A stretch of DNA of 64,000 bases from a virus. Shown here piece after piece: positions 1-64,000 of the stretch. A model generated the notes under the pieces. It saw nothing but the letters and a program-made list of their open reading frames with translations. It had not been told where the DNA came from and did not search any database. The stretch spans positions 48,575 to 112,574 of the IMG/VR virus record IMGVR_UViG_3300024270_000013; one strand, written 5' to 3'. The position numbers and the translations under genes were made by a program. How positions within the stretch are numbered: the stretch's first letter is position 1; the number at the start of each line of letters is the position of its first letter.

Positions 1-1
1 G

Positions 2-265
2 GAAAAACTTATGCGTGGGCGCGCAAAAGTAGCTGCTGAAAAGGGGCAATCTAATACTAGTATATTTAGCCAATATCTTTCAATACTAACAGTGGGATTG
101 GGTTCAATGTCACTTTAGGATGCGATGGATTTAACCATGTTCCAATTATATGATCTAGTTGAAAGATATATGCTATATATTAATTGGGATATGGACGTTC
201 GGTGCCGTTTGGCTGGCGGAAAACCAGATAGCTAGCCTGACAACTGGATGAAAAATATTCACTAA
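2..265 (+). CDS. 3' end of an upstream gene; start lies before the window. Frame contains 2 in-frame TAG and ends at TAA 263-265.
   Basis: Open frame from the window edge interrupted only by TAG, the same pattern as the rest of the module. No homology recognised. Confidence 0.3.
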
Positions 266-291
266 ATGAAAATTTAAGGAGGATATAAACC

Positions 292-1287
292 ATGAAATTT
301 GGTGTTCGCGAAATTTGTGATGTTGTTTTGAAGGCAAAGGCCGCACAGAAGATTGGTAACAAAATCTTCTATAAAAATGAGCCTGTTATTTACTTCGACA
401 CTTTGAAGACCTCTAGCATGGAAGGCGCAGCTACCACTGTTTATGCACAGGGCGGTCGTGGTAACTCTCGTCTAGTTGCTTGGGAAGGTGAGCGTACTAT
501 CACCTTCACTATGGAAGATGCTTTGATTTCTCCCGCTGGCTTTATGATTCTGTCTGGCGCAGGCTTGATTGAGGCTTCTGAGGCAACTCCTATTAAGGTT
601 CATACTACTGAGCAGACTGACAATGTTGCTGTTGATCCTGATAGCGGTGTTGTTACCATTACTCTGAAAGAAGCTGCTTACAATGTAGCTGACGATGCTG
701 AGGATTATGTTTATGTTATGCTGATGGAGAACGGCGAAGTTGTTTCTGAGCCTTTCATTCCCAGTGCTGTTGAGGGCAAGGTTTTAACTCTGTCTCCCGC
801 TTGGGAAGATGAGGGTCGTACCGGCAATATCAAGCCTCGTGGCAATGATTTGTCTGGTTTCTACAACCATTGTGTTGTAATGGTTGATTACTATGTTGAG
901 CGCAAGGGTAAGGCTCAGGAGATTACTATTACTCCCGATAAGTTCGGTGGTAACTACTACCTAGAGGCTTCTACTCTGTTCCGCACTCAGGATGGTGTCG
1001 ATATGCCTGCAGAGTTTGTAATTCCTAACTGCAAGATTCAGTCTAACTTCACTTTCACTATGGCTTCTTCTGGCGATCCTTCCACCTTCACTTTCACTAT
1101 GGACGCATTCCCTGACTATACTCGTTTCGACAGAACTAAGAAAGTCTTGGCTGCTATCCAGATTATCGAAGGCGGTAATGAAGCTGAAGACATCATGCGT
1201 GTAAGCACTCATTCTTTGGACTATGCTGACGCAAATGGTATGATTACTGGCGCTCGTCCTTTCGCAGGATTTAACGCTGTTGAGTAA
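292..1287 (+). CDS. Putative major tail protein (331 aa). No internal TAG.
   Basis: Strong RBS (TTAAGGAGGATATAAACC-ATG) and a strong terminator immediately downstream. It lies upstream of the assembly genes and the tape-measure gene. Function is inferred from position only. Confidence 0.5.
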   Translation: MKFGVREICDVVLKAKAAQKIGNKIFYKNEPVIYFDTLKTSSMEGAATTVYAQGGRGNSRLVAWEGERTITFTMEDALISPAGFMILSGAGLIEASEATPIKVHTTEQTDNVAVDPDSGVVTITLKEAAYNVADDAEDYVYVMLMENGEVVSEPFIPSAVEGKVLTLSPAWEDEGRTGNIKPRGNDLSGFYNHCVVMVDYYVERKGKAQEITITPDKFGGNYYLEASTLFRTQDGVDMPAEFVIPNCKIQSNFTFTMASSGDPSTFTFTMDAFPDYTRFDRTKKVLAAIQIIEGGNEAEDIMRVSTHSLDYADANGMITGARPFAGFNAVE

Positions 1288-1296
1288 TTGACAATT

Positions 1297-1342
1297 AAAT
1301 AAATTTAAGGGGAGAGGTTTTAAATAACCTCTCCCCTTTTTG
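1297..1342 (+). terminator. Rho-independent terminator
   Basis: GGGGAGAGGTTTTAAATAACCTCTCCCC hairpin followed by a T-run (TTTTTGTCGTTTT). Confidence 0.8.
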
Positions 1343-1367
1343 TCGTTTTGAGAGAAAGGAGAAAAAT

Positions 1368-2593: not shown

Positions 2594-2627
2594 AATATAA
2601 AAAGTGAGATAAAGGAGGAGTTTGACT

Positions 2628-3128
2628 ATGGCAAAAATTCCATTTTCCAAACTTGGTGTAAAAGTAAATTCTGAAATTGCTTTATTAACATGGGGGGAAT
2701 ATAATATTGAAATTCGTAAATATTTACCCATGGAAGAAAAGGCAAATTTGATTACAAATGTTTTAAATGCTTCTGCAGATGATAATAAATTTTATAATCC
2801 TTTGCGAGTAAAAGTATTTTTAACCTTGGAAGCTTTGTACGCATATACTAATTTAAGTTTTACTGAAAAAGCTAAAGAGAATTATTTAAAACTTTATGAT
2901 TCTGTTGTAAGTTCCGGTTTATTTGAACAGGTAATTAGTAATATTCCCAAGAGTGAATGGGATGATTTAGTATCTGCAATGTGGGAAACTATTTCTAAAG
3001 TTTATGAATATAATAATTCTGTATTGGGATTATTAGACAATATTTCTAATGATTATAGTAGCTTATCTTTGGAGGCTGCAGAAATTCAAAAAAAGTTAGC
3101 TGAAGGCAATGGTGTAGAATTTTTATAG
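2628..3128 (+). CDS. Putative tail assembly chaperone (166 aa), located directly upstream of the tape-measure gene.
   Basis: RBS AAAGGAGGAG 7 nt upstream of ATG. No internal TAG. The frame reaches TAG 3126-3128 and, if read through, adds 8 codons to TAA. Function is inferred from synteny only. Confidence 0.55.
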   Translation: MAKIPFSKLGVKVNSEIALLTWGEYNIEIRKYLPMEEKANLITNVLNASADDNKFYNPLRVKVFLTLEALYAYTNLSFTEKAKENYLKLYDSVVSSGLFEQVISNIPKSEWDDLVSAMWETISKVYEYNNSVLGLLDNISNDYSSLSLEAAEIQKKLAEGNGVEFL

Positions 3129-3199
3129 GATGTAATGAGTAAGCTGGGCTAATTAAGTTATTTTTATAGGAAAACTTTTCAAATTATCATAGGAATAGT

Positions 3200-3281: not shown

Positions 3282-6200
3282 ATGGCAAAGAATTTAAATG
3301 TTAGTTTATCTTTTTCTGCTGATTCATCAAAAGTTAGAGCTGAACTAAATAGTTTAAAAAAGTCTTTGAATGAATTATCTAACAGTATTGCTTTAAAGAT
3401 TCCGCATTTTGAATTTACTAAAGACCTTCAAGAAGCGAGTCGTGCAGCAGCTCAATTAAAAGTTCAATTAGATGCTGCAGTTAATACAAAAACTGGAAAC
3501 TTGGACTTGACTAAGTTCAGCGAGTCAATGAAAAAAAGTGGTATGTCTTTAGAGAAATACCAAAATCAATTATACTAGCTTGGACCTGCCGGTGAAAAAG
3601 CTTTTGCGGACTTAGCAAAGGCTATTACTATGGCGGATGTACCTTTGAGACGCAGTAGTAAATTATTAGATGAATTATGGACTACTATGAAAAATACTGC
3701 TAGATGGCAGCTAACTTCTAGCGCAATGCATGGATTCATGGGTGCAGTATCAAGCGCTTATGGGTATGCAAAAGATTTAAATGCATCTTTAAATGATATC
3801 AGAATTGTTACTGGCGCAAGTACTGAAAAGATGGCTGAGTTTGCGAAAGAGGCAAATAATGCCGCAAAAGCGCTAAGTACAACTACAACAGATTATACTA
3901 AAGCTTCTTTGATTTTCTATCAATAGGGTTTAAGTGATGAATAGGTTAAAGAGCGTACTGATGTTACTATAAAAATGGCTAATGCTGCGGGCGCAAGTGC
4001 CCAAGAAGTTTCTGATTAGTTAACCGCTGTTTGGAATAACTTTTATGATGGTACTAAATCTTTAGAGTATTATGCTGATGTCATGACTGCTCTCGGTGCG
4101 GCAACTGCTTCTAGTACTGATGAGATTGCTGGCGGATTAGAGAAATTTGCAGCCATCGGTAAAACAATTGGTTTAAGTTATGAATATGCTGCATCAGCCT
4201 TGGCAACAATTACTTCAAATACTCGCTAGAGTGAAGAAGTTGTTGGTACTGCCTTAAAGACTATTTTTGCTCGTATTCAAGGTTTGAATTTAGGTGAAAC
4301 TCTTGATGATGGAGTTACTTTAAATAAATATTCTCAAGCACTTGAAAAAGTTGGAATTAGTATATTTGATAGTACTGGAGAATTGAAGAATATGGATAAT
4401 ATTCTTGATGAAATGGCTGCAAAATGGGATGTCTTAAATAACTCTTAGCAAGTAGCATTGGCACAGACTGTTGCTGGTGTTCGTCAATATAACCAATTAA
4501 TTGCCCTAATGAATAACTGGGATAGTGGTGACAGTGATAGTATGGTCGCAAACTTAACTACTGCGACTAATTCTACAGGAACCTTACAGAATCAAGCAGA
4601 TATTTATGCTGAATCTTGGGAGGCTGCAAACAAGAGAGTAAAGGCTTCTACTGAAGCAGTTTATTCTGCTATTTTAAATGATGAGTTCTTTATTGATTTA
4701 ACTAATAGTTTTGCTGATCTTATAGATGGAGTTAAAACTTTTATTGATAGTTTAGGTGGTATTAAAGGTGTTTTATTAGCTATTGGTAGTATTGTAACAA
4801 GTGTTTTTTCTAAGCAAATTAGTTAGAGTATTCAAAATGCTGCTTTTAGTATTAAAGGATTTTTAAATCCAAAGGCTATTTTGGAGGCAGAAGTTAAATA
4901 GAAGGAAAAGGCCAATAAATTATTAGTTAGTGGTTTAAAGGATTAGGGAACTACTTCTAGTGGTTATAGCGCAGAAGCTTATAAAGCTTTAGGTGAAAAT
5001 CAATTAACTTATATTCAAAATATTGAAAGAATGAGTGAAGAAGAGTAGGCTATTAATTAGATTTTAATGGATAGAAATCGAGCCTTAGTAGATAATGCGA
5101 TTAAAGCTGGCGAAGAATTAGAAATAATTGAAGAAAAAATTGCTGCTGAAAGAAATATCCTTGTATTTTAGGCTCAAAAAGCTGGAAAAGGATCTTCAGA
5201 TCAAATCGCTCAAGTTCGAACATTGTCTAAACAGTATGAAGACTTATCAAAAAATGCTTCTAAATTCCAAGCAGTAGCAAATACTGCTTTTAAATCTATC
5301 GGCATGAATGAATAGGCTGAAGATGCTAAAGAATTAAAAAAGGAATTGTCAGAGACTGTTCAAGAAATGTTAAAACTAAAAAATGTTAATAAATTAACAG
5401 ATGCTCAAGGTATTGAAAAATTAAAAACTTCATTAAAAACGTTATTGCCGGAAGTTAATCTTACAACAACAGAAGTTAATGAATTATGGCAAACTATTAA
5501 AAATAGTGAAAATGTTTCTTTTGAATAGATTACTGCTGTATTTAATAGATTATCAACTGCAAGTACAGCTGCTGGAACAAGTATCCAATCAAAATTAAAA
5601 GTTGCGATGGAAGCTTGTGGTATGACAAGTGAAGAAGTAGAAAATGCTATTCGAGAGTATAATGCAGTTTTAGAATAGTTTGAAAATAAAAACGAAGGTG
5701 CTGAAGTTGCATTAAGAAAAGTAATTGTGGCGATGAAAGAGCATAATAAAAGCATGGAAGAGGCAAAATAGAAACCTATTCCAATGGCTGAAGCTTTTTC
5801 TAAAGCTGCCGGGGCAGCTATGGCATTGGGACAAGCCATTACTACTATTACTGGTATTATTGATGTATTTAATAATGAAGAAGCCACTACTAAAGATAAA
5901 ATTATGGCTTTAATATCTGGTATTGGAATGCTAACTGTTACTATAACATCTATTGTACCAGCATTTAGCACTGCAGAAGTTGCTGTGACTGCATTTGGAG
6001 TTACAACTTCTATCGCAATGTGGCAAATTACTTTAATTGCAATTGCAATTGCTGCTTTAATTGCTGGTATTGTTCTTTTAATTAATCATTTAAATGTCTA
6101 TGGACAGACGTTAGATAATGCTAATAAAAAATTAGAATAGGCTTCATAGGATGCTGAGAACGCAGCAAATGCTATTGATGATGCAAAGAATGCATATCAA

Positions 6201-39671: not shown

Positions 39672-39692
39672 TAAGATAGGGGGTAATATCAT

Positions 39693-42706: not shown

Positions 42707-42865
42707 AATACCTAAAAACATATTTTTTAGGTTTCCTAAAAAACCTCTTAAGGTCCCGAAGTGGTGGACGTTTGGACAAAAGAGGGTAATTTTCCCATCC
42801 TAATTTTCATAATACTATGAGGGGATGGATAAGAAAATTTTTTGTATGGAGAGGAGACCTTACAT

Positions 42866-44755: not shown

Positions 44756-45394
44756 ATGAGCCATGAAAAATTAAAATGGATGAAAGATTCATTAATTTGT
44801 GTAGTTGAAAATCAATTATGTAACCTTAGCGAAGTAGATACCGAAGAGCTTGGAGAAGCTATTGATATGATTAAGGATTTGGAAGAAGCTATCTACTATT
44901 GCACTGTTACTGAAGCGATGAATCATCAAGGCAAAGAAATGAAAATGAAAAATGGCGACCATCATCAGAAGCCTGAGGATGATCGCATGTATTATAGTGG
45001 TGGCTATCCTGCAATGTATGCGGATGGCGGTCGTAATCGTCGCGCAGATGGCACTTTCTATGCCGATGGTGGTCAGAATCATATGGGTGGTACCCAGAAT
45101 TACGCTGATTCTGGCGACATGAGTGGTACTAATAGTTCCAATGGTCGTAACTACTATGACGGGCCTATGTGGCGCGACGAGCGCGAAGGCCGCAGTTACA
45201 ATAGTCGCAGAATGTATATGGAAGCCAAGGAAATGAAACGAGATAAAGCTTCTCAATTACGTGAATTGGAGAAGTATATGCAGGAGTTGTCTCAAGACAT
45301 TACTGAAATGATTGCAGATGCCTCTCCAGAAGAAAAGCAGTATCTTGAGAAGAAAATTACCGCACTGGCTTCTAAGATCGGTCAGATGAAATGA
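44756..45394 (+). CDS. Low-complexity Gly/Asn/Tyr/Arg-rich protein (212 aa) flanked by helical ends. No TAG.
   Basis: RBS AAGGAGGGGTGACTGT-ATG. The central region …YYSGGYPAMYADGGRNRRADGTFYADGGQNHMGGTQNYADSGDMSG… is low complexity. Ends at TGA in an ATGA overlap with the next gene. Confidence 0.65.
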   Translation: MSHEKLKWMKDSLICVVENQLCNLSEVDTEELGEAIDMIKDLEEAIYYCTVTEAMNHQGKEMKMKNGDHHQKPEDDRMYYSGGYPAMYADGGRNRRADGTFYADGGQNHMGGTQNYADSGDMSGTNSSNGRNYYDGPMWRDEREGRSYNSRRMYMEAKEMKRDKASQLRELEKYMQELSQDITEMIADASPEEKQYLEKKITALASKIGQMK

Positions 45395-45702
45395 TTATCA
45401 ATGGAGTTGTCTGGCGAGTCCGATTGGTCTCGCCAGCACATCCTTTGTTACTAACTCCGTGGAAAACTCATGCTCTTGGAGTCTGTGATAAAGTCACTCA
45501 GACTATTTGCGTTGATAAGACCCTTTCCCCTCAACTTTTAAAAGAGGTCTTATGTCACGAAATCGTACACGCATTTATGTATAGTTACATGATTGACTTG
45601 TCCTATAGCGAGGAAGAGTTAGTGGCAGAATTGATGTCATAGTATGGAGAGGATATATTGTTAGAAACGAATGCAATTTATAATGGAATCAAAATGAAAT
45701 AA
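45391..45702 (+). CDS. Small HExxH protein, about 103 aa; putative zinc metallopeptidase-like. One TAG read through at 45640-45642.
   Basis: Motif LCHEIVHAF. The frame continues past the TAG for 20 codons to TAA 45700-45702. Confidence 0.45.
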
Positions 45703-45704: not shown

Positions 45705-45750
45705 AAAGGCTAGTTATGATTAATTTCATAACTAGCCTTTATTTTTTTTA
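45705..45750. terminator. Bidirectional rho-independent terminator
   Basis: GGCTAGTTATGATTAATTTCATAACTAGCC hairpin flanked by an A-run upstream and a T-run downstream. It serves convergent genes on both strands. Confidence 0.7.
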
Positions 45751-46329
45751 TGATGAAGGCACCCACGATGAGCCATTCCAAACATAGGGCATTGCCTATA
45801 TCCATGATGAACCATTCCAAATATAGGGAATTGCACTAACCCAAGAAGAACCATTCCAAATACGTACAGCTCCTGCGTCGCTCACTGATCCTCCATAATA
45901 TGAAGTTCCCCAAGTACCGGCGCACAAAACAGCAGTACTCCAATTGGGTATTCTAAATGTCATTTGTACATATACAGTTGCTCCTGGATTAACTAAAACA
46001 ATATCATTAAAAGTCCATTCACATTTTTTCATATTGTCATAAGTGGAATTATAACTAATATTATTTATTGTAATTTCACTAGAGCTAACAGTTTTACCTG
46101 TACTATCCGTAATGGAAGCTGTGATATAATATGTATTACCATTACCTGTCATACCTCCATATGTGCCGCTACCAGTACTAAAATACATAAAACAACTATT
46201 AATTTTTACTGGCTTGCCAGTGTCATTGTAATAGACAATCATTTGTCCACGAGTGGTAGAACCGGCTGCGGGAACCCAATAACTAAAATTACAACCGTGA
46301 CCTTCGGTGCTTACAATAGACCATCCCAT
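45748..46329 (-). CDS. Tail-fibre-like/receptor-binding-like protein on the opposite strand, about 193 aa, with C-terminal WNGSSW repeats. One TAG read through.
   Basis: Own RBS AAGGAGG before ATG 46329. C-terminus …VRIWNGSSWVSAIPYIWNGSSWI[TAG]AMPYVWNGSSWVPSS, ending at TAA. Confidence 0.55.
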
Positions 46330-48290: not shown

Positions 48291-48338
48291 TTAGGGTCTG
48301 GGAGGTAATTGAATACATTGTTCATAATAAATCTTTGC

Positions 48339-48731
48339 CTATCCGTTGCCACCTAATCCGGTATATAATTTATAGAATTCATCTAATTGAGTTCTTTGCT
48401 CCATTGTAATATATCCTTGAGCCAAGAATCCTTTACATAACTGAACTAAACGGAAACGATAAGAGGCAATAATTAGATTCATATGAGATTGCTCAATATT
48501 CTTTGCATCTCGAATATGCTTTCTGATTTCTTCCAGCTCTTCATAAATTGGTTCTAATTTGATTTCAATAGAGTTTTCAATCTCTTTCTTTTCTTTTTCA
48601 GCAGCCAAATCTTTGGCACTTTGTAATTCTTTTTTCAGTTTATCACCATGCCACTTGGCCCAGCCCATAACGGCTGCACTAATCAAAGCAAATAAGATCT
48701 CTAAACCCCATTCTGCTAATAAAGCTTCCAT
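48339..48731 (-). CDS. Putative holin-like membrane protein (130 aa)
   Basis: N-terminal hydrophobic helix (LEILFALISAAVMGWAKW) followed by a charged coiled coil. Holin-like architecture only; there is no family-level match. Confidence 0.4.
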   Translation of the reverse strand: MEALLAEWGLEILFALISAAVMGWAKWHGDKLKKELQSAKDLAAEKEKKEIENSIEIKLEPIYEELEEIRKHIRDAKNIEQSHMNLIIASYRFRLVQLCKGFLAQGYITMEQRTQLDEFYKLYTGLGGNG

Positions 48732-48797
48732 AAAAAACTTTATCCCCCTTTCTACTTCTCTAACGATACTAAAGAAGCAGATAGGGGGATTATCTCA

Positions 48798-49292
48798 TTA
48801 GGACCAATCGAAGACATTACTTATGTCATAGTAATACAACGCAATACAAAGTGAGTCAGCCTCGTCTTCGGTGCATTTAATTCCGTATTCTTTTAAAACA
48901 TATGCTTGTGCCATTTTCTTTTCTTGCGGACGGCCTTTTCCAGCAATCTTGAAATGAGCCTTCCATTGAATTGGCATAGCGATACTATATGGCATTTTAA
49001 TTTCTGTTAATGTCTCGTGAACTACTCCGAAAGCTTCTGCTAAAATTTTAAATGTTTTAACACCTTTTTCTTTACTGCCATTTACATCTTGCAATTGAAT
49101 ATCTTCAAATACAACTTCATCAATGTCATATGTATCAATTAATTCAAGCACTTTTTTTCTTAGCTGTAATAATCTATCACCAAGGTCGTCACCGATACAT
49201 TCAAAATGACTAACCTTTACAATTTTTCCGTCATCAAGAACGGTATATCCAGTAGTGCGGGAAGATTGATCTAATGCTAAAATTTTAGCCAT
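48798..49292 (-). CDS. ruvC: RuvC-like Holliday junction resolvase
   Basis: MAKILALDQSSRTTGYTV… matches the N-terminal catalytic motif of RuvC (ILGIDPG…). The C-terminal EDEADSLCIALY matches the RuvC active-site region. No TAG. Confidence 0.7.
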   Translation of the reverse strand: MAKILALDQSSRTTGYTVLDDGKIVKVSHFECIGDDLGDRLLQLRKKVLELIDTYDIDEVVFEDIQLQDVNGSKEKGVKTFKILAEAFGVVHETLTEIKMPYSIAMPIQWKAHFKIAGKGRPQEKKMAQAYVLKEYGIKCTEDEADSLCIALYYYDISNVFDWS

Positions 49293-49824
49293 TGGTAGAT
49301 CCGAAGCCGCCGACGCGTTCACCAGAAGACACATCGTCTTCAGTTACGCCATAGGGTAAGATAATACCCTGTCCAATTGCTTCGCCTTCATGGATTTGAA
49401 TATTGAAGGGAGATAGATTATAAATCTGTAAGAAAATTTCACCCTCATTATCGGGATTGTTATAATAGTCAGCATCAATAATGCCAACTCCATTAGCAAG
49501 CATAAGCCAGTATTTCAAAGGAGAAGAACTGCGTACACTCAACTGCAAGAAGGTGCCAGGATCGAGCTTACACTTCATTCCAGTAGAAACTAAAGTGGGT
49601 CTATACTTAGTCAACTTAGTAAACTCAGCCATTTGATCGAGAGTAACATACTCTTCTTCCCCGACAGTCCATACTTCCTCAGCTTCTCCAGCAAGTTGAA
49701 ATACGGAAGGAATAATATAATCCTCTGCGGCGACCAGGTCATATCCTGCGGATTGACTGGTCTTGCGCACGGGCATTACGATTTCTTTGTCTGCATAACG
49801 GGATACTTTCTCGAACTTTGCCAT
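49285..49824 (-). CDS. dut: dUTP diphosphatase (dUTPase)
   Basis: Motifs SAGYDL, GIIDADY and GGFGSTNG at the C-terminus. RBS GAGAGGGG. No TAG. Confidence 0.85.
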   Translation of the reverse strand: MAKFEKVSRYADKEIVMPVRKTSQSAGYDLVAAEDYIIPSVFQLAGEAEEVWTVGEEEYVTLDQMAEFTKLTKYRPTLVSTGMKCKLDPGTFLQLSVRSSSPLKYWLMLANGVGIIDADYYNNPDNEGEIFLQIYNLSPFNIQIHEGEAIGQGIILPYGVTEDDVSSGERVGGFGSTNG

Positions 49825-49826
49825 AT

Positions 49827-50071
49827 TCTTAGCCCCTCTCGTAACTCACAGTGAAGACATCTTCAGGGTCTTTCTCTGCCGTAAAAACCTTGGTGGCTTG
49901 CACGACCATATATTCCTCAATAACTTCACCCTTAGCTTTGATCTACTTCACTTTATAACTGAAGCCAACAAGATCAAATGCGGGATCGTTTAGAAGCTCT
50001 TCATGCAGGACTTCTACAGCTGCCTCATCGGGTACTCTGTAAGTATCAACAGCTTTCAATAAATATCTCAT
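49827..50071 (-). CDS. Hypothetical protein, about 81 aa, with one in-frame TAG.
   Basis: ATG 50071 preceded by GAGGT. The open frame ends at TAA 49827-49829 and is not in the ORF track because of the TAG. Confidence 0.4.
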
Positions 50072-50072
50072 A

Positions 50073-50342
50073 TTATTTTACCTCAATCACAATATTATTT
50101 TTATGACTATAATTCATTTTAGAATACGCCAAAATGTCTTCTGACACCATGTGAGCGTAAGATAGATTGCCGCCTAGATGTACATTCGGAATACCGGTTT
50201 CCGCACATACCGCATTGATTACTTCTGGTAACTCTTCAATAGTAGCAATAGCAACACATTCTAAACTACCAGTTTCAGTATCATATACATAAATTTTTTG
50301 ACTTAAGTCAAAAATATGTAAATCACAATATATTTTTTTCAT
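50073..50342 (-). CDS. Hypothetical protein, about 89 aa.
   Basis: ATG 50342 preceded by GGAGGATAAG. Confidence 0.5.
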   Translation of the reverse strand: MKKIYCDLHIFDLSQKIYVYDTETGSLECVAIATIEELPEVINAVCAETGIPNVHLGGNLSYAHMVSEDILAYSKMNYSHKNNIVIEVK

Positions 50343-50343
50343 C

Positions 50344-50808
50344 TTATCCTCCAACAACTTTTACATCATTTGCAATGGGACGTAAATAAAGTACCAACTC
50401 TTTTTCATCTTGTTTAGAAATTAATGTAAATATAATTTCTTCGTTATTATATATAATTTCACGAACATATCCTAATTCTTCTAATGCTTTAATAACACCA
50501 TCTGCGAGAGTATTATAGTCTTTCGGATAATGTATTGCAATAGAAGTAAATATATAATAATATTTTGCATTTAAACCGGTCATAATAGAATCAGTTAAAA
50601 TGTATATGGTACCATTTCGAACTTTAAAATTATTAATATTAATCTTTGCCTATTCTAATTCTTTTATATCATCTAAGAGACCTAAAATTGAACTAGTAGA
50701 ACGATTAATTTCTTTATAGTGTCCAGTATTGCCAATTTCTTCAAGAGTTACTTTCTAATACTTAACACCATCGTAAGTTGTAATTGTTTTTGTTTCAGCC
50801 ACAATCAC
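50344..50808 (-). CDS. Hypothetical protein, about 154 aa, with 2 in-frame TAG.
   Basis: ORF-track piece 50344-50583 extends upstream in frame across two TAGs to a GTG at 50808 that overlaps the TGA of the upstream gene (GTGA overlap). Confidence 0.45.
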
Positions 50809-51299
50809 TCACCAACCTGTACAATTCCCATGTCATAGGGGAATAGGTATAAGCAAGTGGGTTCATTCTCATATATAACCCAAACTTCAATAGCATCAGT
50901 AGCTTCAGTTAAATCGATCGCTTTCACTATACCAATATTTTGAATTACATCAACTACTTCACGAGCAAATGCGATATGCTCTTTAATCTTAAATACAGTG
51001 AAATAAGAAATCTCCTTACCGTAAAGCATATAATAATCATTATGCCAATCAGTGTCAAACTTTGTCAAAGTTTCAGACACTCGATCCCAGTCGGTCAAAT
51101 CGGGTAGCTGTGCAATAATTTGCTTATTCATATCGTAAAGTCCCATTTCTACACCAGAACTTTCCATTTTGAATTCATGCCAATTATCATTATGCCAGAT
51201 GTAATATTTGCCATCAGTAGCATTTTGCATAATTTCACCTTCAATGGGAATAAAATTCACTTGAGACAAATCCATCTTTTTGATTTTTTGTTTACCCAA
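50805..51299 (-). CDS. Hypothetical protein (164 aa)
   Basis: Probable TTG start 7 nt after AAAGGAGGG. No TAG. Confidence 0.5.
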   Translation of the reverse strand: MGKQKIKKMDLSQVNFIPIEGEIMQNATDGKYYIWHNDNWHEFKMESSGVEMGLYDMNKQIIAQLPDLTDWDRVSETLTKFDTDWHNDYYMLYGKEISYFTVFKIKEHIAFAREVVDVIQNIGIVKAIDLTEATDAIEVWVIYENEPTCLYLFPYDMGIVQVGE

Positions 51300-51338
51300 A
51301 TTATAACCCTCCTTTATCTCATTTATATAAATATTATA

Positions 51339-51821
51339 TCATTTTTTTTCGGATAAGTCAATAATACGCTGATTTCGTGAGCCTCTCATATTCAGTGTAA
51401 TATCTCGCTCTTCTTCAATATATGGACCATCAATTAAAACATCAGCTAATTCTAACGCTCCGCGCACTTGCGGATGGTTGCGATGTTGTAATTCTTCATA
51501 GGTATATCCGCTCCATATATACACCTTGACTCCTGGCACCTTATCTTTGACCTCTTTGATGACTAAATAGGTAAGAAAGGCGTTTTCGTCACAAAGAGGC
51601 TCGCCGCCCATGATACACAGATCACGCTGGATACCTTGGGCGGTGAGGCCGGTAATAATTTGATTTAGGGTGTCAGAAGTAAATTCTTTGCCTCGACCAA
51701 ACTCCCAAGTCTCTGGGTTGTGACAACCCTTACATCTGTGGGGACATCCCTGTACGAAAAAGCTCACACAAAGACCGGGGGCCGCAGTAATATCATTCAA
51801 AATGAGACCACTGTAATTCAT
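51339..51821 (-). CDS. nrdG: Anaerobic ribonucleotide reductase activating protein (radical-SAM)
   Basis: CPHRCKGC radical-SAM cysteine motif near the N-terminus. RBS AAAGGAG. Located immediately downstream of nrdD. Confidence 0.8.
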   Translation of the reverse strand: MNYSGLILNDITAAPGLCVSFFVQGCPHRCKGCHNPETWEFGRGKEFTSDTLNQIITGLTAQGIQRDLCIMGGEPLCDENAFLTYLVIKEVKDKVPGVKVYIWSGYTYEELQHRNHPQVRGALELADVLIDGPYIEEERDITLNMRGSRNQRIIDLSEKK

Positions 51822-51870: not shown

Positions 51871-54075
51871 TTAGGAAAATTGTGAATGTTTGACTCTATG
51901 TTCGACCTCTGACTGTTTTCCCTTGTTGAAATGGCGATAGTCAGTAGTCAAATAACCAGTTACACGACGCAACTGCTGAATATTGTGGCTGCCACACTCG
52001 GGACAAGCATCATTGAACTCACCCTAGAAGCCGCAATCTAAGCAGGAGTCAATGGGGAAATTGAATGCTAAATAAGGAATATCTAACTCCTTGAAAGCAT
52101 AATCAATAATCTGTTCGATAGCCTTGGTATTCTTTACGAAAGTGCTATCAAGCTCGACATAAGTAATACATCCACCAGTAGGATACTTACAGAATGGAGC
52201 CTCAACCGCAAGCTTATCGAAGATACTAATCTCATGCCATACGGGTACATGGTGGCTATTGGTTAAGAACTCATGGTCGGTAACATTAGGAATAACTCCA
52301 TATTGCTTACGCAGAGCCTTTGCAGCGGTGTGGCATAGACCTTCCGCGGGGGTAGCGTAGCAAGAGAAGTTCAAATCATGACGCTCAGAAGCTTCCTTAG
52401 CATATTCATTGATACGCTTTACAACCTTCAAAGCGAACTCGTGTACTTTTGGATCTTCGGCATGATTCTTACCAAACAATGCTTGACACATTTCGGCAAT
52501 ACCAATGTAACCCATAGCCAAAGTTCCGTGCTTCAATGCTTCGTAGTTAGATACTCGGCATTTCTGGGCGTCTTTCATAGTACCATTTTGATACATGAAA
52601 GGACCAGCCTCAGGAGGCTGATTTACCATAATATCAAAACGCTCCAAAAGACCCTGTTCGCATAACATCAATAAATCCTCGAATGCAGACCAGAAGCCAT
52701 CTAAATCCGGGGTCTCACGCTTACCTAAACAGATACCATATTCGATACCTAACTTTGGTAAAATCATAGTATTGGGGCACAGGTTACCACGACCAACGCG
52801 GTTGTAGGAATCAGTATGACGGTCATAACCTAACATTGTGCGGCAGCCCATTGTGGCGAAGTATGTGTCGGGATCATTAGGATCTTCGTGCGCCTGTGAA
52901 AAATCGCAGTTGACGAAGTTAGGATAAATTCTCTTACTCAAAGATTCGATAGCTAATTGCTTCAAATCGTAGTTTGGATCTTCTGGATTAGCATTACATC
53001 CTTGTTTATACTGGAAAATACTAATTGGGAAGATAGGAGTTAAATGGTGCTTACCAACGCCAGATAAAGAAGCTCTTAACATCTTCTCACTTACAAAACG
53101 ACCCTCGGTAGAAGTGTCACGACCGAAGTTGATAGAAGTGAAAGGAACCTGGCTACCCGCACGAGACTCCAGAGTATTTAAGTTATGATACAAAGCTTCA
53201 CTTGCCTGGATACCTTCACGCTCTAGCTGACGCATAGCAAACTTATAAGCAGGAGTATCCTTAATTGCTTCATTGTCAATTACGCAAGGCTCATACTTAG
53301 CCTTTAATACAATTTCAGCATCTTCCTTAGACAAGCCTTCAACATCAGTGAAGTAGTTACGCATATGCTTGTAGAAGCTCTTGGCAACATATGGAGCCAA
53401 GTCATAGTCAGCATGGACTGTACCAACGCCACCAAATTGAACCTGGGACTGGCATTGGAAAATAACTGCATATTGCTGACAAGCAGTATCATATTTTGAT
53501 GGTGGACGCACATCGCCGTTGCGAGTTACGAAACCATCAGTAAAAATCTTTTTGAAATCAACGAACAAGCAGTTATGTTCGCCAATATTTGTTTTCTCAT
53601 TATCGTGTTGATATAACAACATATCCTTATGAGCTTGCGCTACTTCGGGGGATAGAGTATAATCCAACGCAATTATCTTCTAAATGTCTGCGGAAGCTTC
53701 CTTCTCACGACCGGAGAAGCTCTTCTCATCAACATTCGCATTGGAATTTTCAACAGCAGTAGCTTCAGTTCTACGCATAACTGCCTTTAATAATTTACTT
53801 TGACGCATACGAGCCTTACTGCGCTCGTCACGATATAAAATGTAAGCCTTGGCAACTTCTGGATATTCACTCTTCATCAAATATCCTTCAACCAAGTCTT
53901 GAATTTGTTCGACGGACATATCGACACCGCGACTACCAATTAGATCTGCGATTTCTTCAGCAGTATCGGATTCATACACGGAGCCGTATGCGCTAATCAT
54001 AGCCTTATTGATGGCATTTACAATCTTATCGGGATTGAATAGAACTCTTGTACCATCTCTTTTAATTACATGCAT
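51871..54075 (-). CDS. nrdD: Anaerobic ribonucleoside-triphosphate reductase (class III), about 734 aa, read through 2 in-frame TAG.
   Basis: N-terminal ATP cone (MHVIKRDGTRVLFNPDKIVNAI…), then TAG at 53677-53679, then the catalytic core (ORF 52024-53667), then TAG at 52022-52024, then the C-terminal CPECGSH Zn-ribbon and glycine-radical motif RVTGYL. Ends at TAA 51871-51873. RBS GGAGGT 7 nt before ATG 54075. Confidence 0.85.
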
Positions 54076-54162: not shown

Positions 54163-54754
54163 TCAATGTCGTCCTTGCGCGAGCATGTCCTCGATCTGGC
54201 CTGCAATCTGCTCGGCGTTCGCATAGAAATCGTCAAAAGTCTCGTTGACAACTTCGGTGTAGTCAAAATCAATATCAGCAAAATCTTCTTCATCAGCATT
54301 GAAGCGACGAACAATCTCTTTAACGTCGGGATTTTCCTCTCGACTAAGCTGACGATATAAGCGCTGTTTATCAGAAACAGTTACCCAATAAACAGTGACT
54401 TCACAATCCGGCCGGTCAAGCAACTGCCGCACACCCGCAGGATTGAAAACACCGATATTGATAATGCCATCGCTGCGTACAGACTCATAACTAGTACCAT
54501 ACCACCAATTGTTGAAATTAGTAAATTCCAACATTTCATCATTCATAATTTTCATTGCAAAATCATCGGGATGATAGTAATAGTAATTGATGCCGTGAGC
54601 TTCGCCCTCTCGCATTGGTCTACTGGTACAGCTTACGATCTCGTGGACCTCAGAAATAATTTTCTTTTCAGCGAGTAATTTTAATACCTATTTCATCAAT
54701 GAGTCTTTACCAGCGCCGCCTTTACCCATAAAAAGAACTATTTTATACATTTTC
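54163..54754 (-). CDS. Guanylate-kinase-like nucleoside monophosphate kinase, about 196 aa, with one in-frame TAG.
   Basis: P-loop GKGGAGKDS, then TAG, then the TSRPMREGEAHGINYYY guanylate-kinase motif. RBS GAGGAGG before ATG 54754. Confidence 0.65.
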
Positions 54755-54964
54755 ATTGTCCTCCTCAAACTCATATTGAATTTTTCCGGGGACTTCATGC
54801 GCCCAGAAGGTAGCACGACCATCGCAGTCGGGGTTACTGCAACGGAATGGGTATTGCTCGGGGTAGGTAGAATATACCATCCCCGTGCTCACCATTTTAC
54901 TACCACACTTATCGCAGAACGCTTCTAATACATATGCTTTTTTTACATATCTCTTAGTCAACAT
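54743..54964 (-). CDS. Small zinc-ribbon protein (73 aa)
   Basis: CDKC…CSNPDC C4 arrangement. RBS AAGGAGG. Overlaps the 3' end of dnaE. Confidence 0.45.
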   Translation of the reverse strand: MLTKRYVKKAYVLEAFCDKCGSKMVSTGMVYSTYPEQYPFRCSNPDCDGRATFWAHEVPGKIQYEFEEDNENV

Positions 54965-57900: not shown

Positions 57901-58847
57901 TGAGTTGGCAGAGGAATCTTAGGAATCATCTGTTTACGCTCTAAAGAGTATGAAGTATATTGTTCACCCAATTTACGAGAGTTTTCTAAGATTTCAGTGA
58001 CAATATAATCATTTCCAAAGCAATGATGCAATAGTTTATAAACTTCATCATATGACATCAAATGAGCAAACTCATAGAAACTATCAACCTCACGCTCGCC
58101 GCCCTTAGAATTTAGATAAGACTTATGGACGTATCTATCTTCCTTGGTGAGATAGTGAGAGTCAGTACCAACAATCAAAGGAATATCATATGCTTTTGCA
58201 ATACGATATAACTTGCGGTTGGTGATACATTGATCCTCAGCGGTTGAAGGCGCACATTCAATATAGAAATCATTACCGAACACATCAAGACAATACTTGA
58301 TGAAATCGCAAATTTGATTATAAAACACTCCTGCGGAAATCTTATCATTGACATTTTCAGCGCAGGCCATGTTGTATGCGGCGGTGGATAACTCGCCACC
58401 CATACAGGCGGTTGAAGCAATTACATGCCCCTTATACTTCGCCATAATGGTTGCCAATTCGTCTTTGGTAATGGGCACGCGCTCCATACCTCGATCGACA
58501 TAGGAATGATACCAAGCAGTTGAGCTCAATTCACGCAGAGCCTTGTGTCCGATTTCATCCTTGGCAGTTAGAATAAAGTGATAATATTTGATACCACTCT
58601 CTCGTTTATCTACTAAATAAACCTCATTGCCTAAAACAATTACAAAATCGGGATACTTCTCCTTTATCTTCTAAGCATACTGATTGACTTCCATATGTCC
58701 GGATAGACATTCGTGGTCTGTAATCGCAATGCCGGAAAGACCCAATTCAATTGCTTTGTCAATGAGGTCCTTAGGTCTATTGATACAATCGAGTAAGCGG
58801 ATATTCGAATACATTGTATGGTTGTGAATATTGAAATATGTTCCCAT
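54954..58847 (-). CDS. dnaE: DNA polymerase III alpha subunit (DnaE-type), about 1297 aa, with one in-frame TAG in the PHP domain.
   Basis: ORF 54954-58529 carries the Pol III alpha core (…GPGRGSATGFLSNYLLGITQLDPIRWNLPYWRFLNKERAELPDIDIDL…). The N-terminal PHP domain (MGTYFNIHNHTMYSNIRLLD…ITDHECLSG…) lies upstream in the same frame, separated only by TAG 58670-58672. ATG 58847 is preceded by GAAAGGGATAATCGA. Confidence 0.85.
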
Positions 58848-58882: not shown

Positions 58883-58911
58883 ATTATACCAATTTTTTTC
58901 TCTATTGTCAA
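58883..58911 (-). promoter_or_regulatory. Perfect sigma-70 consensus promoter on the minus strand: TTGACA, 17 bp spacer, TATAAT. It lies upstream of dnaE.
   Basis: Reverse complement: TTGACA at 58911-58906, a 17-nt spacer, and TATAAT at 58888-58883. Overlaps the 3' end of the helicase gene. Confidence 0.65.
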
Positions 58912-60083
58912 CTATCTCGCACGATAACGAGCTTTTCTTTGGCGCGCGTAGCAGCTGTATATAGCCACTCTGCATGGTGTCCACCACGCAAAAATTCTTC
59001 AAAAACAAGAACTTTATCATATTCACTACCCTGCGCCTTATGGGTAGTAATACAATAACCATAGTCGAATTCACGGGGGCGCCAAATCTTAGGGAAGCGC
59101 TTCCAGTTCTGCGCGGTTACGGTCGGCTCACCAGTAGTGAGTAATCTGTAATCCATATTTACACCACGGAAAATCAAATCCTGTGGAGAGTTTTCAACAT
59201 CATCGTCTGAATAATCATCAGACCAAAAATCGCAAACCATCATCGGCCGCAAATAAGGATTGTTATTCAACAAATCAATCTTAGTAAGTGTGCCAATAGT
59301 GCCATTCACCATTACATCGCCCGCTTCACTCGGATGATCCCAGTCATTCCGCAAACAAATAACCTTATCTCCTACTATTGGAGTCGGATCGTCAATGTCA
59401 TGTAAATACTTACGCATAAGATGATTTACCGTACGGCGTGTCTCATTCTTTGCTACAAGGATCTGGTCGGCCCAAGTATACATACCAGACACAACATCTT
59501 TCTTATCAATGATTTGCACTTCGTTTCCTCGGAAGAGTTCGAGAGGTTTGCCGTCTCGAATATCCATAGTCAAACGAATGATTTCACTCTCCTGGGCTTG
59601 GCGCATAATCTCATCCAAGAAAATGTGCGGATGGTCGAGCACTCCATTAGACTCACCAATAGGAGGAAGCTGGCCGGGGTCGCCAAGAGCAATAACATGA
59701 ATACGATGTGAAGTCAACAAATCCCAAATCTCTTTTGGAAGCATTGAAATTTCATCGACAACAATCAACTTATATGGATAGTCCAGAGGTCTACGAGGTT
59801 TGTGATAGAATGTTCCATCATTGCGAGGATAGGACTGATATAACAGTCTGTGTGCGGTCATGGCATTCTCGCATCCTTTTTCACGCAAAACCTTTGCGGC
59901 CTTGCCTGTGAATGCGATATAACAAACCTCTGCGGGATATAGACCCAGCGCTGCAACGATAAACTTCACAAGTGTACTCTTACCAGTACCAGCGTAACCG
60001 GCGATACAGGTCCAGGGTTCATTGTTCTTATAGCGGGCGACCGCAATCTTTAATCCCTCTTCCTATTTAGCAGTAAGTACCAT
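58908..60083 (-). CDS. SF1 RecD/Dda-like DNA helicase, about 391 aa, with one in-frame TAG near the N-terminus.
   Basis: Walker A AGYAGTGKST just upstream of ORF 58908-59969, reached across TAG 60064-60066. Also VVDEISM, GDPGQLPPI and TTHKAQGSEYDKVLV motifs. Start ATG 60083 lies 6 nt after GGAGG. Confidence 0.75.
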
Positions 60084-60354
60084 TTTCATCCTCCTTTGGA
60101 TGGGCGTGAACCAGCTGTTCTAATGTCATATAAAAATGCTGCTTACGACCATTCATACGCCGACGCGCGTCAACGGGGTCAATATGATCGGCTCTAGACA
60201 TATACGCAGCCAATTCATCACAGACTTCGGCATATCTAAAATAGATACTATCAAATCCAAAATCTAAACGGTCTTTTACCAATTCATCGAAATCTTCTCT
60301 TGGTAATCTTACAATATCCAATTTTTCTTTCAGACTTTTTGCGTAATCCGTCAT
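60067..60354 (-). CDS. Hypothetical protein (95 aa)
   Basis: RBS AAAGGTGAG. No TAG. Confidence 0.45.
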   Translation of the reverse strand: MTDYAKSLKEKLDIVRLPREDFDELVKDRLDFGFDSIYFRYAEVCDELAAYMSRADHIDPVDARRRMNGRKQHFYMTLEQLVHAHPKEDENGTYC

Positions 60355-60905: not shown

Positions 60906-60911
60906 ATTTAC

Positions 60912-61802
60912 TTACCCTACGAAATACTCGTAAGCTCGTCTTGCGTATCCTCTACGAGGCGCTCTATGTCCTTCACCACAACGCTCGAAATAACAAGCGA
61001 AGGCGTAGGCACATTCTTCCGGAGTGTCGGCTTCCATGATTTGCTCGAGTTGCCAATTTGTAACTTGTTTGGTAACTCCATCAGTGCCGTGCAACTCATC
61101 GTGCATAAAATTGAGCTGATCTTCAATACTTGGATTTTCTCCGTAAATTGAAAATAGTTGACGCTTGCGGCCGCCTAGCCACTGAATCATACCGAAACCA
61201 CTTGAGCTATGTACGTCCCAATCGAGATCGGAAGTCCAGCAACCGCCGCACTCAGCCATCATATTACCCATAATACCGGCGCACACAGTATCACTATAAC
61301 CCAGCTCATTCTTCATATAGAGCCAGACTTGAGTAGCAACTGGATACTCGGCCGCACGCTTCTCCCATTTGAGTTTCTCTTCCCAAATTGAGAATTGCTC
61401 TTGGTAATACTCAACTTCAATTGTTGCATTTTCAATATCGGTTTTAGCTAATACTACTGCGGGATGGTCGTCCGCATAACCGAGAGTTAGGAAACCTTGA
61501 TAGATGGTTTCAGTAAGCTCCTGGCGAGCAATAGCTTCTTCCAATAGAGAAGTAGCTTCATCATATGTAGTAGGTTCAACACGCTTGAACTCCACGGTAT
61601 CTAATACAATAACTACCTCTTCTGGTTCAGTAGACTCAGTATCTACTGGAAAGGTGGTAGTCTCAGAAGGGATGTAATCTTCCGAAAAAGTAGCAACTGG
61701 ATTGGTGTCTGCGACCACAGTACCTGCTGCATATGCAATAACACTTAGAGTGCTAATAAACATGGCTATAATCAACAATACACCGATAATTTTCTGTTTC
61801 AT
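60912..61802 (-). CDS. Secreted lysozyme-like/peptidoglycan hydrolase-like protein (296 aa). Candidate Sec-dependent endolysin or virion-associated lysin.
   Basis: N-terminal signal peptide (MKQKIIGVLLIIAMFISTLSVIAYAAG) and a Thr/Glu/Pro-rich linker. The C-terminal domain carries a DTVCAGIMGNMMAECGG motif resembling phage tail-lysozyme-like domains. The family assignment is from memory. Confidence 0.5.
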   Translation of the reverse strand: MKQKIIGVLLIIAMFISTLSVIAYAAGTVVADTNPVATFSEDYIPSETTTFPVDTESTEPEEVVIVLDTVEFKRVEPTTYDEATSLLEEAIARQELTETIYQGFLTLGYADDHPAVVLAKTDIENATIEVEYYQEQFSIWEEKLKWEKRAAEYPVATQVWLYMKNELGYSDTVCAGIMGNMMAECGGCWTSDLDWDVHSSSGFGMIQWLGGRKRQLFSIYGENPSIEDQLNFMHDELHGTDGVTKQVTNWQLEQIMEADTPEECAYAFACYFERCGEGHRAPRRGYARRAYEYFVG

Positions 61803-61835
61803 AATTTCCTCCTAATATTACTATCAGGCCGTCAA

Positions 61836-63575
61836 TTAGAAATAGTATTTCTGTTCTCCTACAATTTCGTAATCTTCAATAATAATTTGTGGACTTACAA
61901 TACCATTCCATATGTTGCGTTCACACTTGCCCACAACATTGATGGTTATACAACCAGTTTCAGAGTGTAATTTTTCATACTCCTCTTGTGACGACTTGAA
62001 TTTGATTAAACTCGTACCATTTGGTAAGGTTATCTTTAGAGTAGGACTCTTGTCTGGTGACATAAGAACAATATTATCTTTATGTAGATTGATATGTTCG
62101 ATGGCAACCAGAGGTTCATCTACTCCTTGGCCCCATAAAGATTTGAGTTCAGCAATTTCCACAATGTCTTTTCCTCTGAAATCATCACCGTGGAAAATGA
62201 AATCAACCTTATAACAAGGGGTAAAGTCAAAATCTGCCAAAGCGTGATTGGAGTAATTTACAAATTGAGTAAAGTTTGCATCAGTGATACCAACACCCAA
62301 TGCGTTGGCGTGACCTTCTGCATACATTACCAATTCACTATCTTTCAAAAACTCACGGAGGTTATCAAATTTCGATTTATCGTATCCTCTTCCTGAACCC
62401 TCCCAGCCATCTTCTGTCTTATTAAGTAGAAGTACTGGGCGTTGATATTTCGCCATTAGCTGGTTTGCAATCAAACCAGTAAGGTTTTTATCGGCCGCAA
62501 AAGTATCTAATTTGATAGCCAAAATCTTATTCTCTAACAGATTTTTCTCTTTGATTATGCGTTCAATTGTCTCCAAGGCTGCGTCTCTTGCTTTTGTTTG
62601 CCTATTTTTGATGTTAGTGCAATTACGACAAGCCTGTTCTACTCTCGTCTCCTGCTGACCCTTACATCCTCTTTTGGTTGATGGGACTAGTTCATATCCC
62701 CGATAGTCAAGCATAGACTCGAATAGCATGAGCTTTTCTTCCTGCGTTCCCATTCTTATCGTGGCATTTACATAGGGAGCAATATAAAAAGCTACTCCAA
62801 TAGGACTGATACCGTCTTTCAACGAATATGCTTGTTTGTCTACCATTCCCTTGAAGTATGGATTGCGAATATTCTCGAGTCCTCGCGTGATAAGGTGTCT
62901 CGTTTCAAAATCGCGTAGATCCATCATGTCGGCCACCATTCCGAGTGCGACCAAATCTAAAAACTGATCTGCATAATCAACATTCATAAGCTCGTCGATA
63001 TAGGAACAGAATTTATATACCATTCCGACACCAGACAAAGACTTAGTGGGATAATCACACAGCTGATTGTTGATAATACAGGCGTGTTCTGAGATACTAT
63101 CTGCTTCGTGGTGGTCAATTACCAGCACATCCACGCCTTTTTCAGCCAATGTCTTATGCTCTTCATAATCATTGGAACTTGAGTCGGGCGCAATCACTAA
63201 CTTGACATCTGCGGGAACAGTATCAAGAATAATGCCGTGCTGTTTCCCCGTATGGATACGATAATATACATTGTTCTACACAAAACCGGGGAATAGACAA
63301 TTCAGATAGTTGATAAGGGCGGCCGCACTTGTATAACCATCACAGTCGCTATCAATCTGAATTAGAACTTTGTCATTTTGTGCGATATGTTTGATGAGAA
63401 GTTTTACACCCTCTTGGATATTCATAAGAATTTTTGGGTCTAAAATATCTGCATCAGTAGTATGTAGATAGTGTTCTACATTCGCCGGTACAATGCCCCG
63501 GTTGGCAAGTACCTATTCGACCGCTGTTAGCTATTTCTCCAGCGGGATATTAGGTACAATAAGTTGATACTCCAT
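61836..63575 (-). CDS. recJ: RecJ-like DHH-family single-strand DNA exonuclease, about 579 aa, with 3 in-frame TAG in the N-terminal part.
   Basis: DHH motif VIDHHE. Upstream, in frame across TAGs, the DHH motif I …IQIDSDCDGYTSAAAL…. RBS AGGAGG before ATG 63575. Confidence 0.7.
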
Positions 63576-63616
63576 AAAGTATTCAACCTCCTTTCATGTA
63601 GATCACCACTAACTTA

Positions 63617-63973
63617 TTATATGAATTTTGCTTCAATTTCTTCATCCTCTCTCGTCCAGTCATAAGAGGAAGGAAGATAAAAACGAAATGATTGATAAGG
63701 CATAGCCTTAGTTGCTGGCTTAATAATGGTGTTGATTGCTTCTTGAGAAATGCGGCGGTCGATATAAGACACATTTGCCGAGTGACCTCGTCCGCTATCC
63801 GAGGCGCGCACAACTCTCCAAATATCATCATTATCGAATAAAATCCAAGAGCCTGCAGATTTACTAATTACTCGTCTTATTGGTTTAATATCCATTCGAG
63901 CATACTGCTCTTCAATTTCAAGTAATTTTTCATTCGCCCCATCACTTTCATAGGCCCAAATAATTCCTCTCAT
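63617..63973 (-). CDS. Hypothetical protein (118 aa)
   Basis: ATG 63973 preceded by GAGGT. Ends at a TAA TAA double stop. Confidence 0.45.
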   Translation of the reverse strand: MRGIIWAYESDGANEKLLEIEEQYARMDIKPIRRVISKSAGSWILFDNDDIWRVVRASDSGRGHSANVSYIDRRISQEAINTIIKPATKAMPYQSFRFYLPSSYDWTREDEEIEAKFI

Positions 63974-64000
63974 AGCTGGAACCTCGGTTTACTACTAATT

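Follow-up and report, generated by a model that had tools for sequence, protein, structure and literature searches.

An SPbeta-like gut phage genome in which TAG is very probably read as glutamine

A stretch of 64,000 nucleotides from a viral genome (IMG/VR record IMGVR_UViG_3300024270_000013, positions 48,575 to 112,574; this whole stretch is referred to below as the window) raises the question of how its genes are read, since most of its long reading frames are interrupted by TAG. An earlier note on this DNA, made from the letters alone, had proposed that TAG is reassigned throughout the genome, most likely to glutamine (Gln, Q). We revisited this proposal through gene calling under alternative codes, residue-level comparison with related phages and a search for the decoding tRNA. 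The window very probably belongs to an SPbeta-like siphovirus of gut Bacillota with a genome of ~180 kb that follows genetic code 15, where TAG specifies Gln and TAA and TGA terminate.

The frames themselves leave little doubt that TAG is read through. With a greedy gene caller that accepts only TAA and TGA as stops, the window (G+C content 35.5%) resolves into 46 genes with a coding density of 97.4% and a longest product of 3122 amino acids (aa), compared to 102 open reading frames (ORFs), 75.6% coding and a longest product of 1191 aa when the same caller is run under code 11. Over the 20,742 codons of the 46 genes we counted 184 in-frame TAG and not a single TAA or TGA, although TAA and TGA together make up 8.2% of the codons in the two off-frames of these genes, and the genes end at TAA (36 genes) or TGA (10 genes) but never at TAG. 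An open-frame scan gave the same result: the longest ORFs measure 1239, 794 and 552 aa in the standard code and 3134, 2255, 1987 and 1310 aa with TAG as sense, and ORFs of 150 aa or more then cover 0.93 of the window instead of 0.60, a share that TGA as sense raises only to 0.63. Since a frame of 3122 codons devoid of TAA and TGA has an ln P of about -269, a chance origin of the longest gene can be ruled out. The earlier note was therefore correct in describing long frames broken by TAG alone, genes that all end at TAA or TGA, and a genome that a standard-code caller shreds. In-frame TAG as the only interruption, with the frames restored once it is read as sense, is the pattern that characterizes code-15 phages.

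This pattern is not peculiar to one assembly. Exact look-ups of two TAG-free window proteins placed the window, in reversed orientation, on a contig of the European Nucleotide Archive (ENA; Table 1), and identical proteins recur in independent ENA, JGI and Logan assemblies. The ENA-derived gene calls are already full length, including a 3122-aa tape measure, a 1297-aa DnaE and a 579-aa RecJ, from which it follows that one public pipeline has already used a TAG-sense code; the JGI gene calls on contigs with the same proteins are shredded.

As to which amino acid TAG specifies, we translated the window genes with an X at each TAG, aligned the products to the TAG-sense ORFs of every related locus (several hundred), removed copies of the same phage as well as duplicate sequences, and tabulated the residue and codon opposite each TAG. 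Residue-level alignments were used because typing the code of a locus by its ORF coverage is unreliable where TAG is rare, as it is in the early and replication regions. Across 140 TAG columns, weighted by position, Q is the commonest residue at 20.8%, a 5.8-fold enrichment over its background of 3.6%, followed by E (11.0%) and K (10.2%), and the log-likelihood of the column counts is -379 for Q, compared to -418.5 for K and -422.8 for E, which puts Q ~40 nats ahead. Defining a conserved column as one with at least 8 distinct relatives and at least 70% agreement, we obtained 23 such columns, 15 of which are Q. In five of these the Q is invariant (100%) among 13-38 distinct relatives, as exemplified by codon 215 of the tape measure (3924-3926; Q in all 38 distinct relatives that have a sense codon at this position) and codon 9 of the helicase (60063-60065; 30 of 30 relatives). 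TAG ends 7.6% of the genes in standard-code relatives, as opposed to none of the 46 in the window. With TAG included, the 783 inferred Gln codons divide into 436 CAA, 184 TAG and 163 CAG. The alignments to homologues thus support Gln as the residue that best fits the TAG positions, in line with what had been proposed. Regarding the immediate context, the ITQ-TAG-QP motif reported at 42866 is indeed present, but the TAG-TAG pairs described as frequent amount to merely two, and Q is not enriched beside TAG.

The reading of TAG as a sense codon is further supported by domains that continue across it. Both TAGs of the anaerobic ribonucleotide reductase NrdD, at codons 137 (53680-53682) and 689 (52024-52026), are covered by the Pfam NRDD match (residues 117-735), and the protein aligned unbroken over residues 7-735, across both TAGs, to the solved NrdD structure in PDB entry 8p23, so that its domains can, as claimed, be regarded as TAG-separated segments of one frame. 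The PHP domain of the DNA polymerase DnaE (Pfam 7-198) likewise continues across the only TAG of that gene, codon 59 (58671-58673), and in the guanylate kinase-like protein a TAG at codon 45 (54688-54690) separates the P-loop at residue 33 from the TSRP motif at residue 66, both as anticipated. For RecJ, the TAG-containing frame stands, with TAGs at codons 15, 21 and 100, but the placement of DHH motif I (DSDCDGY) across three TAGs does not: the motif lies at residue 75, and a single TAG separates it from the remainder, codon 100 (63276-63278), which is located inside the DHH domain and aligns with Q in 70% of the relatives. The tape measure is one frame, as described, although we counted 59 TAGs in it rather than about 70. 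Finally, two genes had been noted to reach a TAG close to their C-terminus and continue to TAA (2628-3128 and 45391-45702). In the first of these (2622-3152), more than 60 relatives conserve residues 170-176, just after the TAG, and the terminal G is present in 61 of 61, and in the second the TAG is at codon 84 and the residues after it are again conserved in relatives; owing to this conservation, we consider both near-terminal TAGs to be read through.

TAG is found in 29 of the 46 genes (63%), and among the 17 that reach 300 aa or more, 15 contain it, but its density differs strongly between regions. The late genes on the plus strand contain 11.0 TAG per 1000 codons and the replication and nucleotide-metabolism genes on the minus strand 2.8 (Fisher p = 1e-9). 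At the extremes, tape-measure and baseplate genes reach 13-23 per 1000 codons, compared to about 3-4 in replication genes, where the polymerase, NrdD, the helicase and RecJ have 1-3 TAGs each; TAG is rare in the small genes at 48291..51821 on the minus strand. In parts of the same phage outside the window, the early small-gene region has 1.9 TAG per 1000 codons, the genes for gyrase B and A, RNase H and DNA ligase have none, and the head and packaging genes have about 7.5. The major-capsid-like (YonB), scaffold-like and tube proteins are free of TAG. Among the TAG-recoded relatives, it occurs in endolysin and PhoH-like genes. Such an enrichment of the recoded codon in late over early genes is a further hallmark of code-15 phages, and the gradient fits the published picture in which expression begins with genes that the standard code can read and turns to recoded genes late, with the nuance that very abundant virion proteins avoid TAG and that replication already depends on TAG decoding.

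By analogy with published recoded phages, infection would start with the expression of those genes that can be read in the standard code of the host. A UAG-decoding activity would then appear, normally a phage tRNA with a CUA anticodon, which host enzymes (in Bacillota, glutamyl-tRNA synthetase, GluRS, plus GatCAB) could charge as Gln, possibly aided by reduced activity of release factor 1 (RF1). The TAG-containing genes, that is DNA polymerase, NrdD and most tail genes, along with the endolysin in relatives, would only then be completable. Because these genes could be finished only after decoding appears, we propose that the recoding may serve to time late functions.

A number of observations weigh against this interpretation. 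Relatives disagree at many of the TAG columns, and in 8 of the 23 that are conserved the consensus is R (three), K (two), E, T or A (one each), so that the assignment to Gln is a matter of statistics and not of peptides. Since the essential polymerase carries a TAG, a simple rule by which only late genes are recoded fails. The decoding tRNA did not come to light. ARAGORN (also at ps90) detected no tRNA at all in the window, and Rfam returned nothing on it at the gathering score or at E values up to 1. We extended the search by reading the same phage from ~42.1 kb to 155.3 kb of the contig (113 of 181 kb, 62%), using exact look-ups for 10 kb beyond each window end and then protein-seeded IMG/VR scans (loci L081, L088, L096, L139, L219 and L299), and by sampling ~600 loci of relatives around the genes for the tube, the portal, thyA, gyrB, dnaE, a baseplate protein, an AbrB-like early protein, a UPF0316-like membrane protein and, upstream of the lysis genes, a metallophosphatase. 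A tRNA with a CUA anticodon, which the earlier note had thought worth seeking, was found neither in these 113 of 181 kb nor in the ~600 relative loci, and hardly any tRNA turned up at all; the Pfam-annotated parts hold no gene for a release factor or an aminoacyl-tRNA synthetase. As a positive control, ARAGORN detects the three CUA tRNAs of phage phAss-1. A 'CTA' call inside nrdD was spurious, and at ps80 or with introns allowed the program gave only noise from coding regions. Two more distant phages that the protein searches also brought up (L514 and L515) possess tRNA arrays ~5 kb past the UPF0316-like gene used above as a marker, and it is therefore quite possible that a suppressor tRNA resides in the remaining ~68 kb of the genome.

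One tRNA-like gene was encountered in a relative (L543 5636-5713; ENA ERZ27298558:k141_157766). It scores 33.4 bits against the Rfam tRNA model, has an anticodon loop of 8 nucleotides (ARAGORN 'cttg') and is flanked by terminator-like hairpins. Lacking a CTA anticodon as well as a counterpart in the loci of the present phage, it was rejected as a candidate.

The absence of a CUA tRNA from all sampled DNA of the clade could alternatively mean that TAG is read as Gln without any canonical phage suppressor tRNA, either through antagonism of RF1 combined with near-cognate reading by host tRNA-Gln, or through phage enzymes that alter or repair the tRNAs of the host. That suppressor tRNAs are detected in just 40% of TAG-recoded genomes (bioRxiv 10.1101/2021.08.26.457843) is compatible with such a scenario, as is the presence in relatives of TAG-free genes for proteins that handle tRNA or RNA (YqeY-like, resembling the tail of GatB; Thg1-like; RNase T; RNA ligase). 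These genes have been seen in relatives only, however, where other roles are plausible; 59 TAGs in a single gene would make near-cognate reading an inefficient route; and ~68 kb of the genome, plus the matching region of the relatives, lie outside the scanned DNA, with the arrays of L514 and L515 showing where tRNAs might be housed. We therefore regard tRNA-less decoding as unlikely, and give only an outside chance to its broadest form, in which the whole SPbeta-like clade would recode without a CUA suppressor of its own by reprogramming host decoding, with the tRNA-handling genes as candidate helpers.

Some of these genes merit description in their own right. The YqeY-like protein is free-standing (L588 3507-3989, L590 2936-3433, L592 8516-8998, L594 3644-4141), contains no TAG and matches PF09424 at 31-35 bits, above the gathering score. 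It is encoded within an NAD-salvage cluster upstream of the lysis genes, together with nicotinamidase, PRPP-synthetase-like, SIR2, NAPRTase, NAD synthase and NADAR proteins. YqeY and GatB-tail domains bind tRNA-Gln in other systems, and by this analogy a link of the YqeY-like protein to the decoding of TAG as Gln is conceivable. Another relative (L592 666-5730; ENA ERZ27297790:k141_691109) has genes for a Thg1-like protein, a sigma-70 family factor, RNase T and an RNA-ligase-like protein side by side, in which the Thg1-like homologue of tRNA-His guanylyltransferase scores 106 bits; the two genes inspected for TAG, those for the Thg1-like protein and the sigma-70 factor, have none in frame. A 50-aa ORF shared by two relatives (L584 1246-1398, L585 7254-7406) has a precomputed match to ArfA, a ribosome-rescue factor that recruits RF2; the match is labelled 'faint' and constitutes a mere hint.

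A TAG that is sense could also specify a residue other than Gln, such as Lys, Glu, Tyr, Trp or pyrrolysine. K and E are, after all, the next commonest residues at TAG columns, the non-Q minority among the conserved columns includes both, and there is no tRNA at hand from which identity elements could be read. The prominence of E and K, however, is equally found at genuine Q columns, which have the same neighbour profile, and columns of Y and W are highly conserved yet almost never found opposite a TAG. Furthermore, the TAGs of relatives land on window TAG at 47 per 1000 and on window Q at 38 per 1000, compared to ~11 per 1000 for E or K. Taken with the enrichment, the likelihoods and the five invariant Q columns, this makes a residue other than Gln very unlikely.

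Reading TAG as Gln need not involve a switch during infection if the host itself reads TAG as sense, an explanation that would account for the lack of a phage suppressor tRNA in the scanned DNA and for a replication polymerase that needs TAG decoding. To our knowledge, no bacterial lineage with TAG as Gln exists, and it would be difficult to see why the early genes, gyrase and ligase should be TAG-free or nearly so. The close relatives include phages with the standard code or with TGA recoding. The share of genes with TAG, moreover, falls within the range of 26-71% reported where the host uses the standard code, and short of the ~90% reported for code-25 phages matched to the code of their host (bioRxiv 10.1101/2021.08.26.457843), and we consider a recoded host exceedingly improbable. 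The remaining alternative, that the TAGs are real stops in a decaying prophage, in pseudogenes or in a faulty assembly, agrees with the fragmented genes that standard-code callers such as that of JGI produce, but it is effectively refuted by the complete lack of in-frame TAA and TGA, by conserved sequence and continuous domains after the TAGs, by identical proteins in many independent assemblies and by hundreds of relatives that share the pattern.

Concerning the identity of the phage that reads TAG in this manner, the contigs that match the window carry Pfam families of SPbeta type (PF27173 YomU_Tube, PF27364 YonB, PF27290 YonD_N, PF27256 YomW, PF27211 YomV, PF27337 YorF, PF26927 YorH and YomO), and the DnaE finds its best named matches, each at ~39% identity, in SPbeta-like Bacillus phages, Enterococcus EF1-like phages and 'Phage Phass-1'. 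These families, together with a YorL-type DnaE, place the phage among large siphoviruses of the SPbeta/EF1/phAss-like kind. It has no close relative among GenBank phages, against which a megablast search with 18 kb of the window gave no match, and a chimeric four-protein query against metagenome contigs retrieved no exact copies. In IMG/VR, where an exact-match query with the window gave no hit, relatives abound: 275 were found by the tube protein and 239 by a portal-like protein, on contigs of 130-200 kb. Most are TAG-recoded, and the standard code is in use at approximately 1/4 to 1/3 of the loci from the structural region. In five relatives (L029, L055, L562, L565 and L567) the structural region is open under TGA-sense reading only (with coverage rising, for instance, from 0.64 to 0.95), and with these TGA-recoded members the clade holds three genetic codes. 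The matches in GTDB, from samples of sheep, yak, deer, rabbit and human origin, are whole phage contigs binned in metagenome-assembled genomes (MAGs) of mixed taxonomy, the majority Bacillota. These bins hint at a Bacillota host without amounting to a host assignment; along with the SPbeta-type families and the Shine-Dalgarno-like sites 5' of 32 of the 46 genes, they agree with the Firmicutes-like expression signals that had been pointed out earlier.

The match to alternative-code gut phages drawn in the earlier note holds up well. Gut phages that read TAG as Gln are known to concentrate the recoded codon in late genes and to include Firmicutes-infecting clades of 150-200 kb in which codes 11, 15 and 4 are mixed (bioRxiv 10.1101/2021.08.26.457843), and code 15 has been validated by proteomics in crAss-like phages (PMC9523058). 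The code-15 phages of Borges et al. (crAss-like, Lak and 'gemstone') share with the present one TAGs that align with Gln, a bias towards structural and lysis genes with variable use in replication genes, predicted Firmicutes hosts, mixed codes 11/15/4, a size of 130-200 kb, an origin in animal guts and a suppressor tRNA that often goes undetected. They differ in that here the most abundant virion proteins are TAG-free and the DNA polymerase carries a TAG. The size of the genome, its habitat, the link to Firmicutes and the mixture of codes would be compatible with the Agate, Jade or Sapphire clades of the same authors.

The closest named recoded relative is phAss-1 (proposed genus Phassvirus, OQ749652), a large gut siphovirus with TAG-to-Gln recoding, a 3149-aa tape measure (compared to 3122 aa here, both ~3100 aa), a DnaE-type polymerase, NrdD and NrdG, and a predicted Bacillota host (PMC10607447). 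The differences are nevertheless considerable. Identity is 38.6% for DnaE and about 50% for the tube, and among the 36 tRNAs of phAss-1 there are three CUA suppressors, of which two adjoin nrdD, whereas no tRNA was found in the window, beside nrdD or elsewhere. With no megablast match and protein identities of 39-50%, the comparison of sequences places the present phage outside Phassvirus. Bacillus phage SPbeta and the Enterococcus EF1-like phages have in common with it the YomU tube, YonB, YonD, YomW, YomV, YorF and YorH proteins and a YorL-type DnaE (~39% identity), but use the standard code, and identities are low.

Recoding, late-gene bias and mixed-code clades are thus already published, and the window represents a new example rather than a new phenomenon. 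It does imply that the standard-code annotation of this genome and of many relatives is wrong, and that databases hold truncated proteins for the clade. A well-sampled SPbeta-like lineage from herbivore and human guts, with standard, TAG-recoded and TGA-recoded members side by side, is also useful material for studying how code changes arise, and the lack of a suppressor tRNA in the scanned DNA bears on decoding in the ~60% of TAG-recoded phages that have no detectable suppressor.

Table 1 Location of the window and of the genes discussed, in window coordinates
Feature	Position	Strand	In-frame TAG	Basis or remark
Phage genome segment, probably recoded	1..64000	.		= ENA contig ERZ27248446:k141_1906683 (181,006 bp) 62,493-126,492, reversed
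Tail tube protein (YomU-like), 331 aa	292..1287	+	0	PF27173 YomU_Tube; 275 IMG/VR relatives
Structural-module protein, 397 aa	1368..2561	+	9	Gene call; no Pfam match
YomO-like protein	2622..3152	+	codon 169 (3126-3128), then 7 conserved codons and TAA	Weak PF27287 match
Tape-measure protein, 3122 aa	3282..12650	+	59	PF10145 PhageMin_Tail, PF08230 CW_7
Distal tail/baseplate genes, 1976, 122, 850, 815, 116, 271 aa	12770..25352	+	58 in total	Homologues in at least 49 relatives
Three fibre-like genes, 486, 452, 788 aa	25413..30636	+	1, 1, 0	Gene call
Virion-associated protein, 2233 aa	30763..37464	+	14	Gene call
Further late-region genes, including 733 and 578 aa	37761..48229	+	9 (733 aa), 7 (578 aa)	Gene call
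Q-rich protein with ITQ-TAG-QP	42842-43309	+		Translation context
Lone minus-strand gene within late region	45748-46329	-		Gene call
RuvC-like resolvase	48798-49334	-		Pfam
dUTPase	49285-49824	-		Pfam
NrdG activase	51339-51821	-		Pfam
NrdD anaerobic ribonucleotide reductase, 739 aa	51871..54090	-		Pfam ATP-cone, NRDD, Gly_radical
Guanylate kinase-like protein	54163..54822	-		Pfam Guanylate_kin 27-205
YorL-type DnaE (Pol III alpha) polymerase, 1297 aa	54954..58847	-		Pfam and homologues
RecD/PIF1-like superfamily 1 (SF1) helicase	58908..60089	-		Pfam
RecJ-like DHH exonuclease	61836..63575	-		Pfam DHH 69-213

Within the late region, a Pfam search with ten structural proteins gave no match, and the TAG-bearing genes among the distal tail and baseplate genes contain 13-18 TAG per 1000 codons. 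Five large genes of the tail region (25413-30636 and 37761-40310; 486, 452, 788, 636 and 205 aa) are nearly TAG-free, with 1, 1, 0, 1 and 0 TAGs amid TAG-dense neighbours, and may represent fibre genes that are highly expressed or of recent acquisition. The opposite situation is found in the same phage outside the window, where a GIY-YIG protein (L096 8720-9709, the same as L081 1-733) has 12 TAGs in 329 codons, the highest density outside the tail genes, in the midst of a TAG-poor replication region.

Two further regions of the same phage outside the window stood out. The early region (L139 1-3130 on the minus strand, and L299 10,280-20,273) consists of many small genes, each preceded by a near-identical promoter-like block (TTGACA-like and TATAAT-like) and a ribosome-binding site, and has an AbrB/SpoVT-like gene at its edge. 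In gyrB (L219 ~70-1330; IMGVR_UViG_3300024303_000441), an apparent insert of 1.3 kb follows after ~24 codons, and the N-terminal gyrB motif is repeated behind it. The insert encodes a GIY-YIG endonuclease, named 'group I intron endonuclease' by JGI, whose family is very widespread, with 475 proteins at E <= 1e-20.

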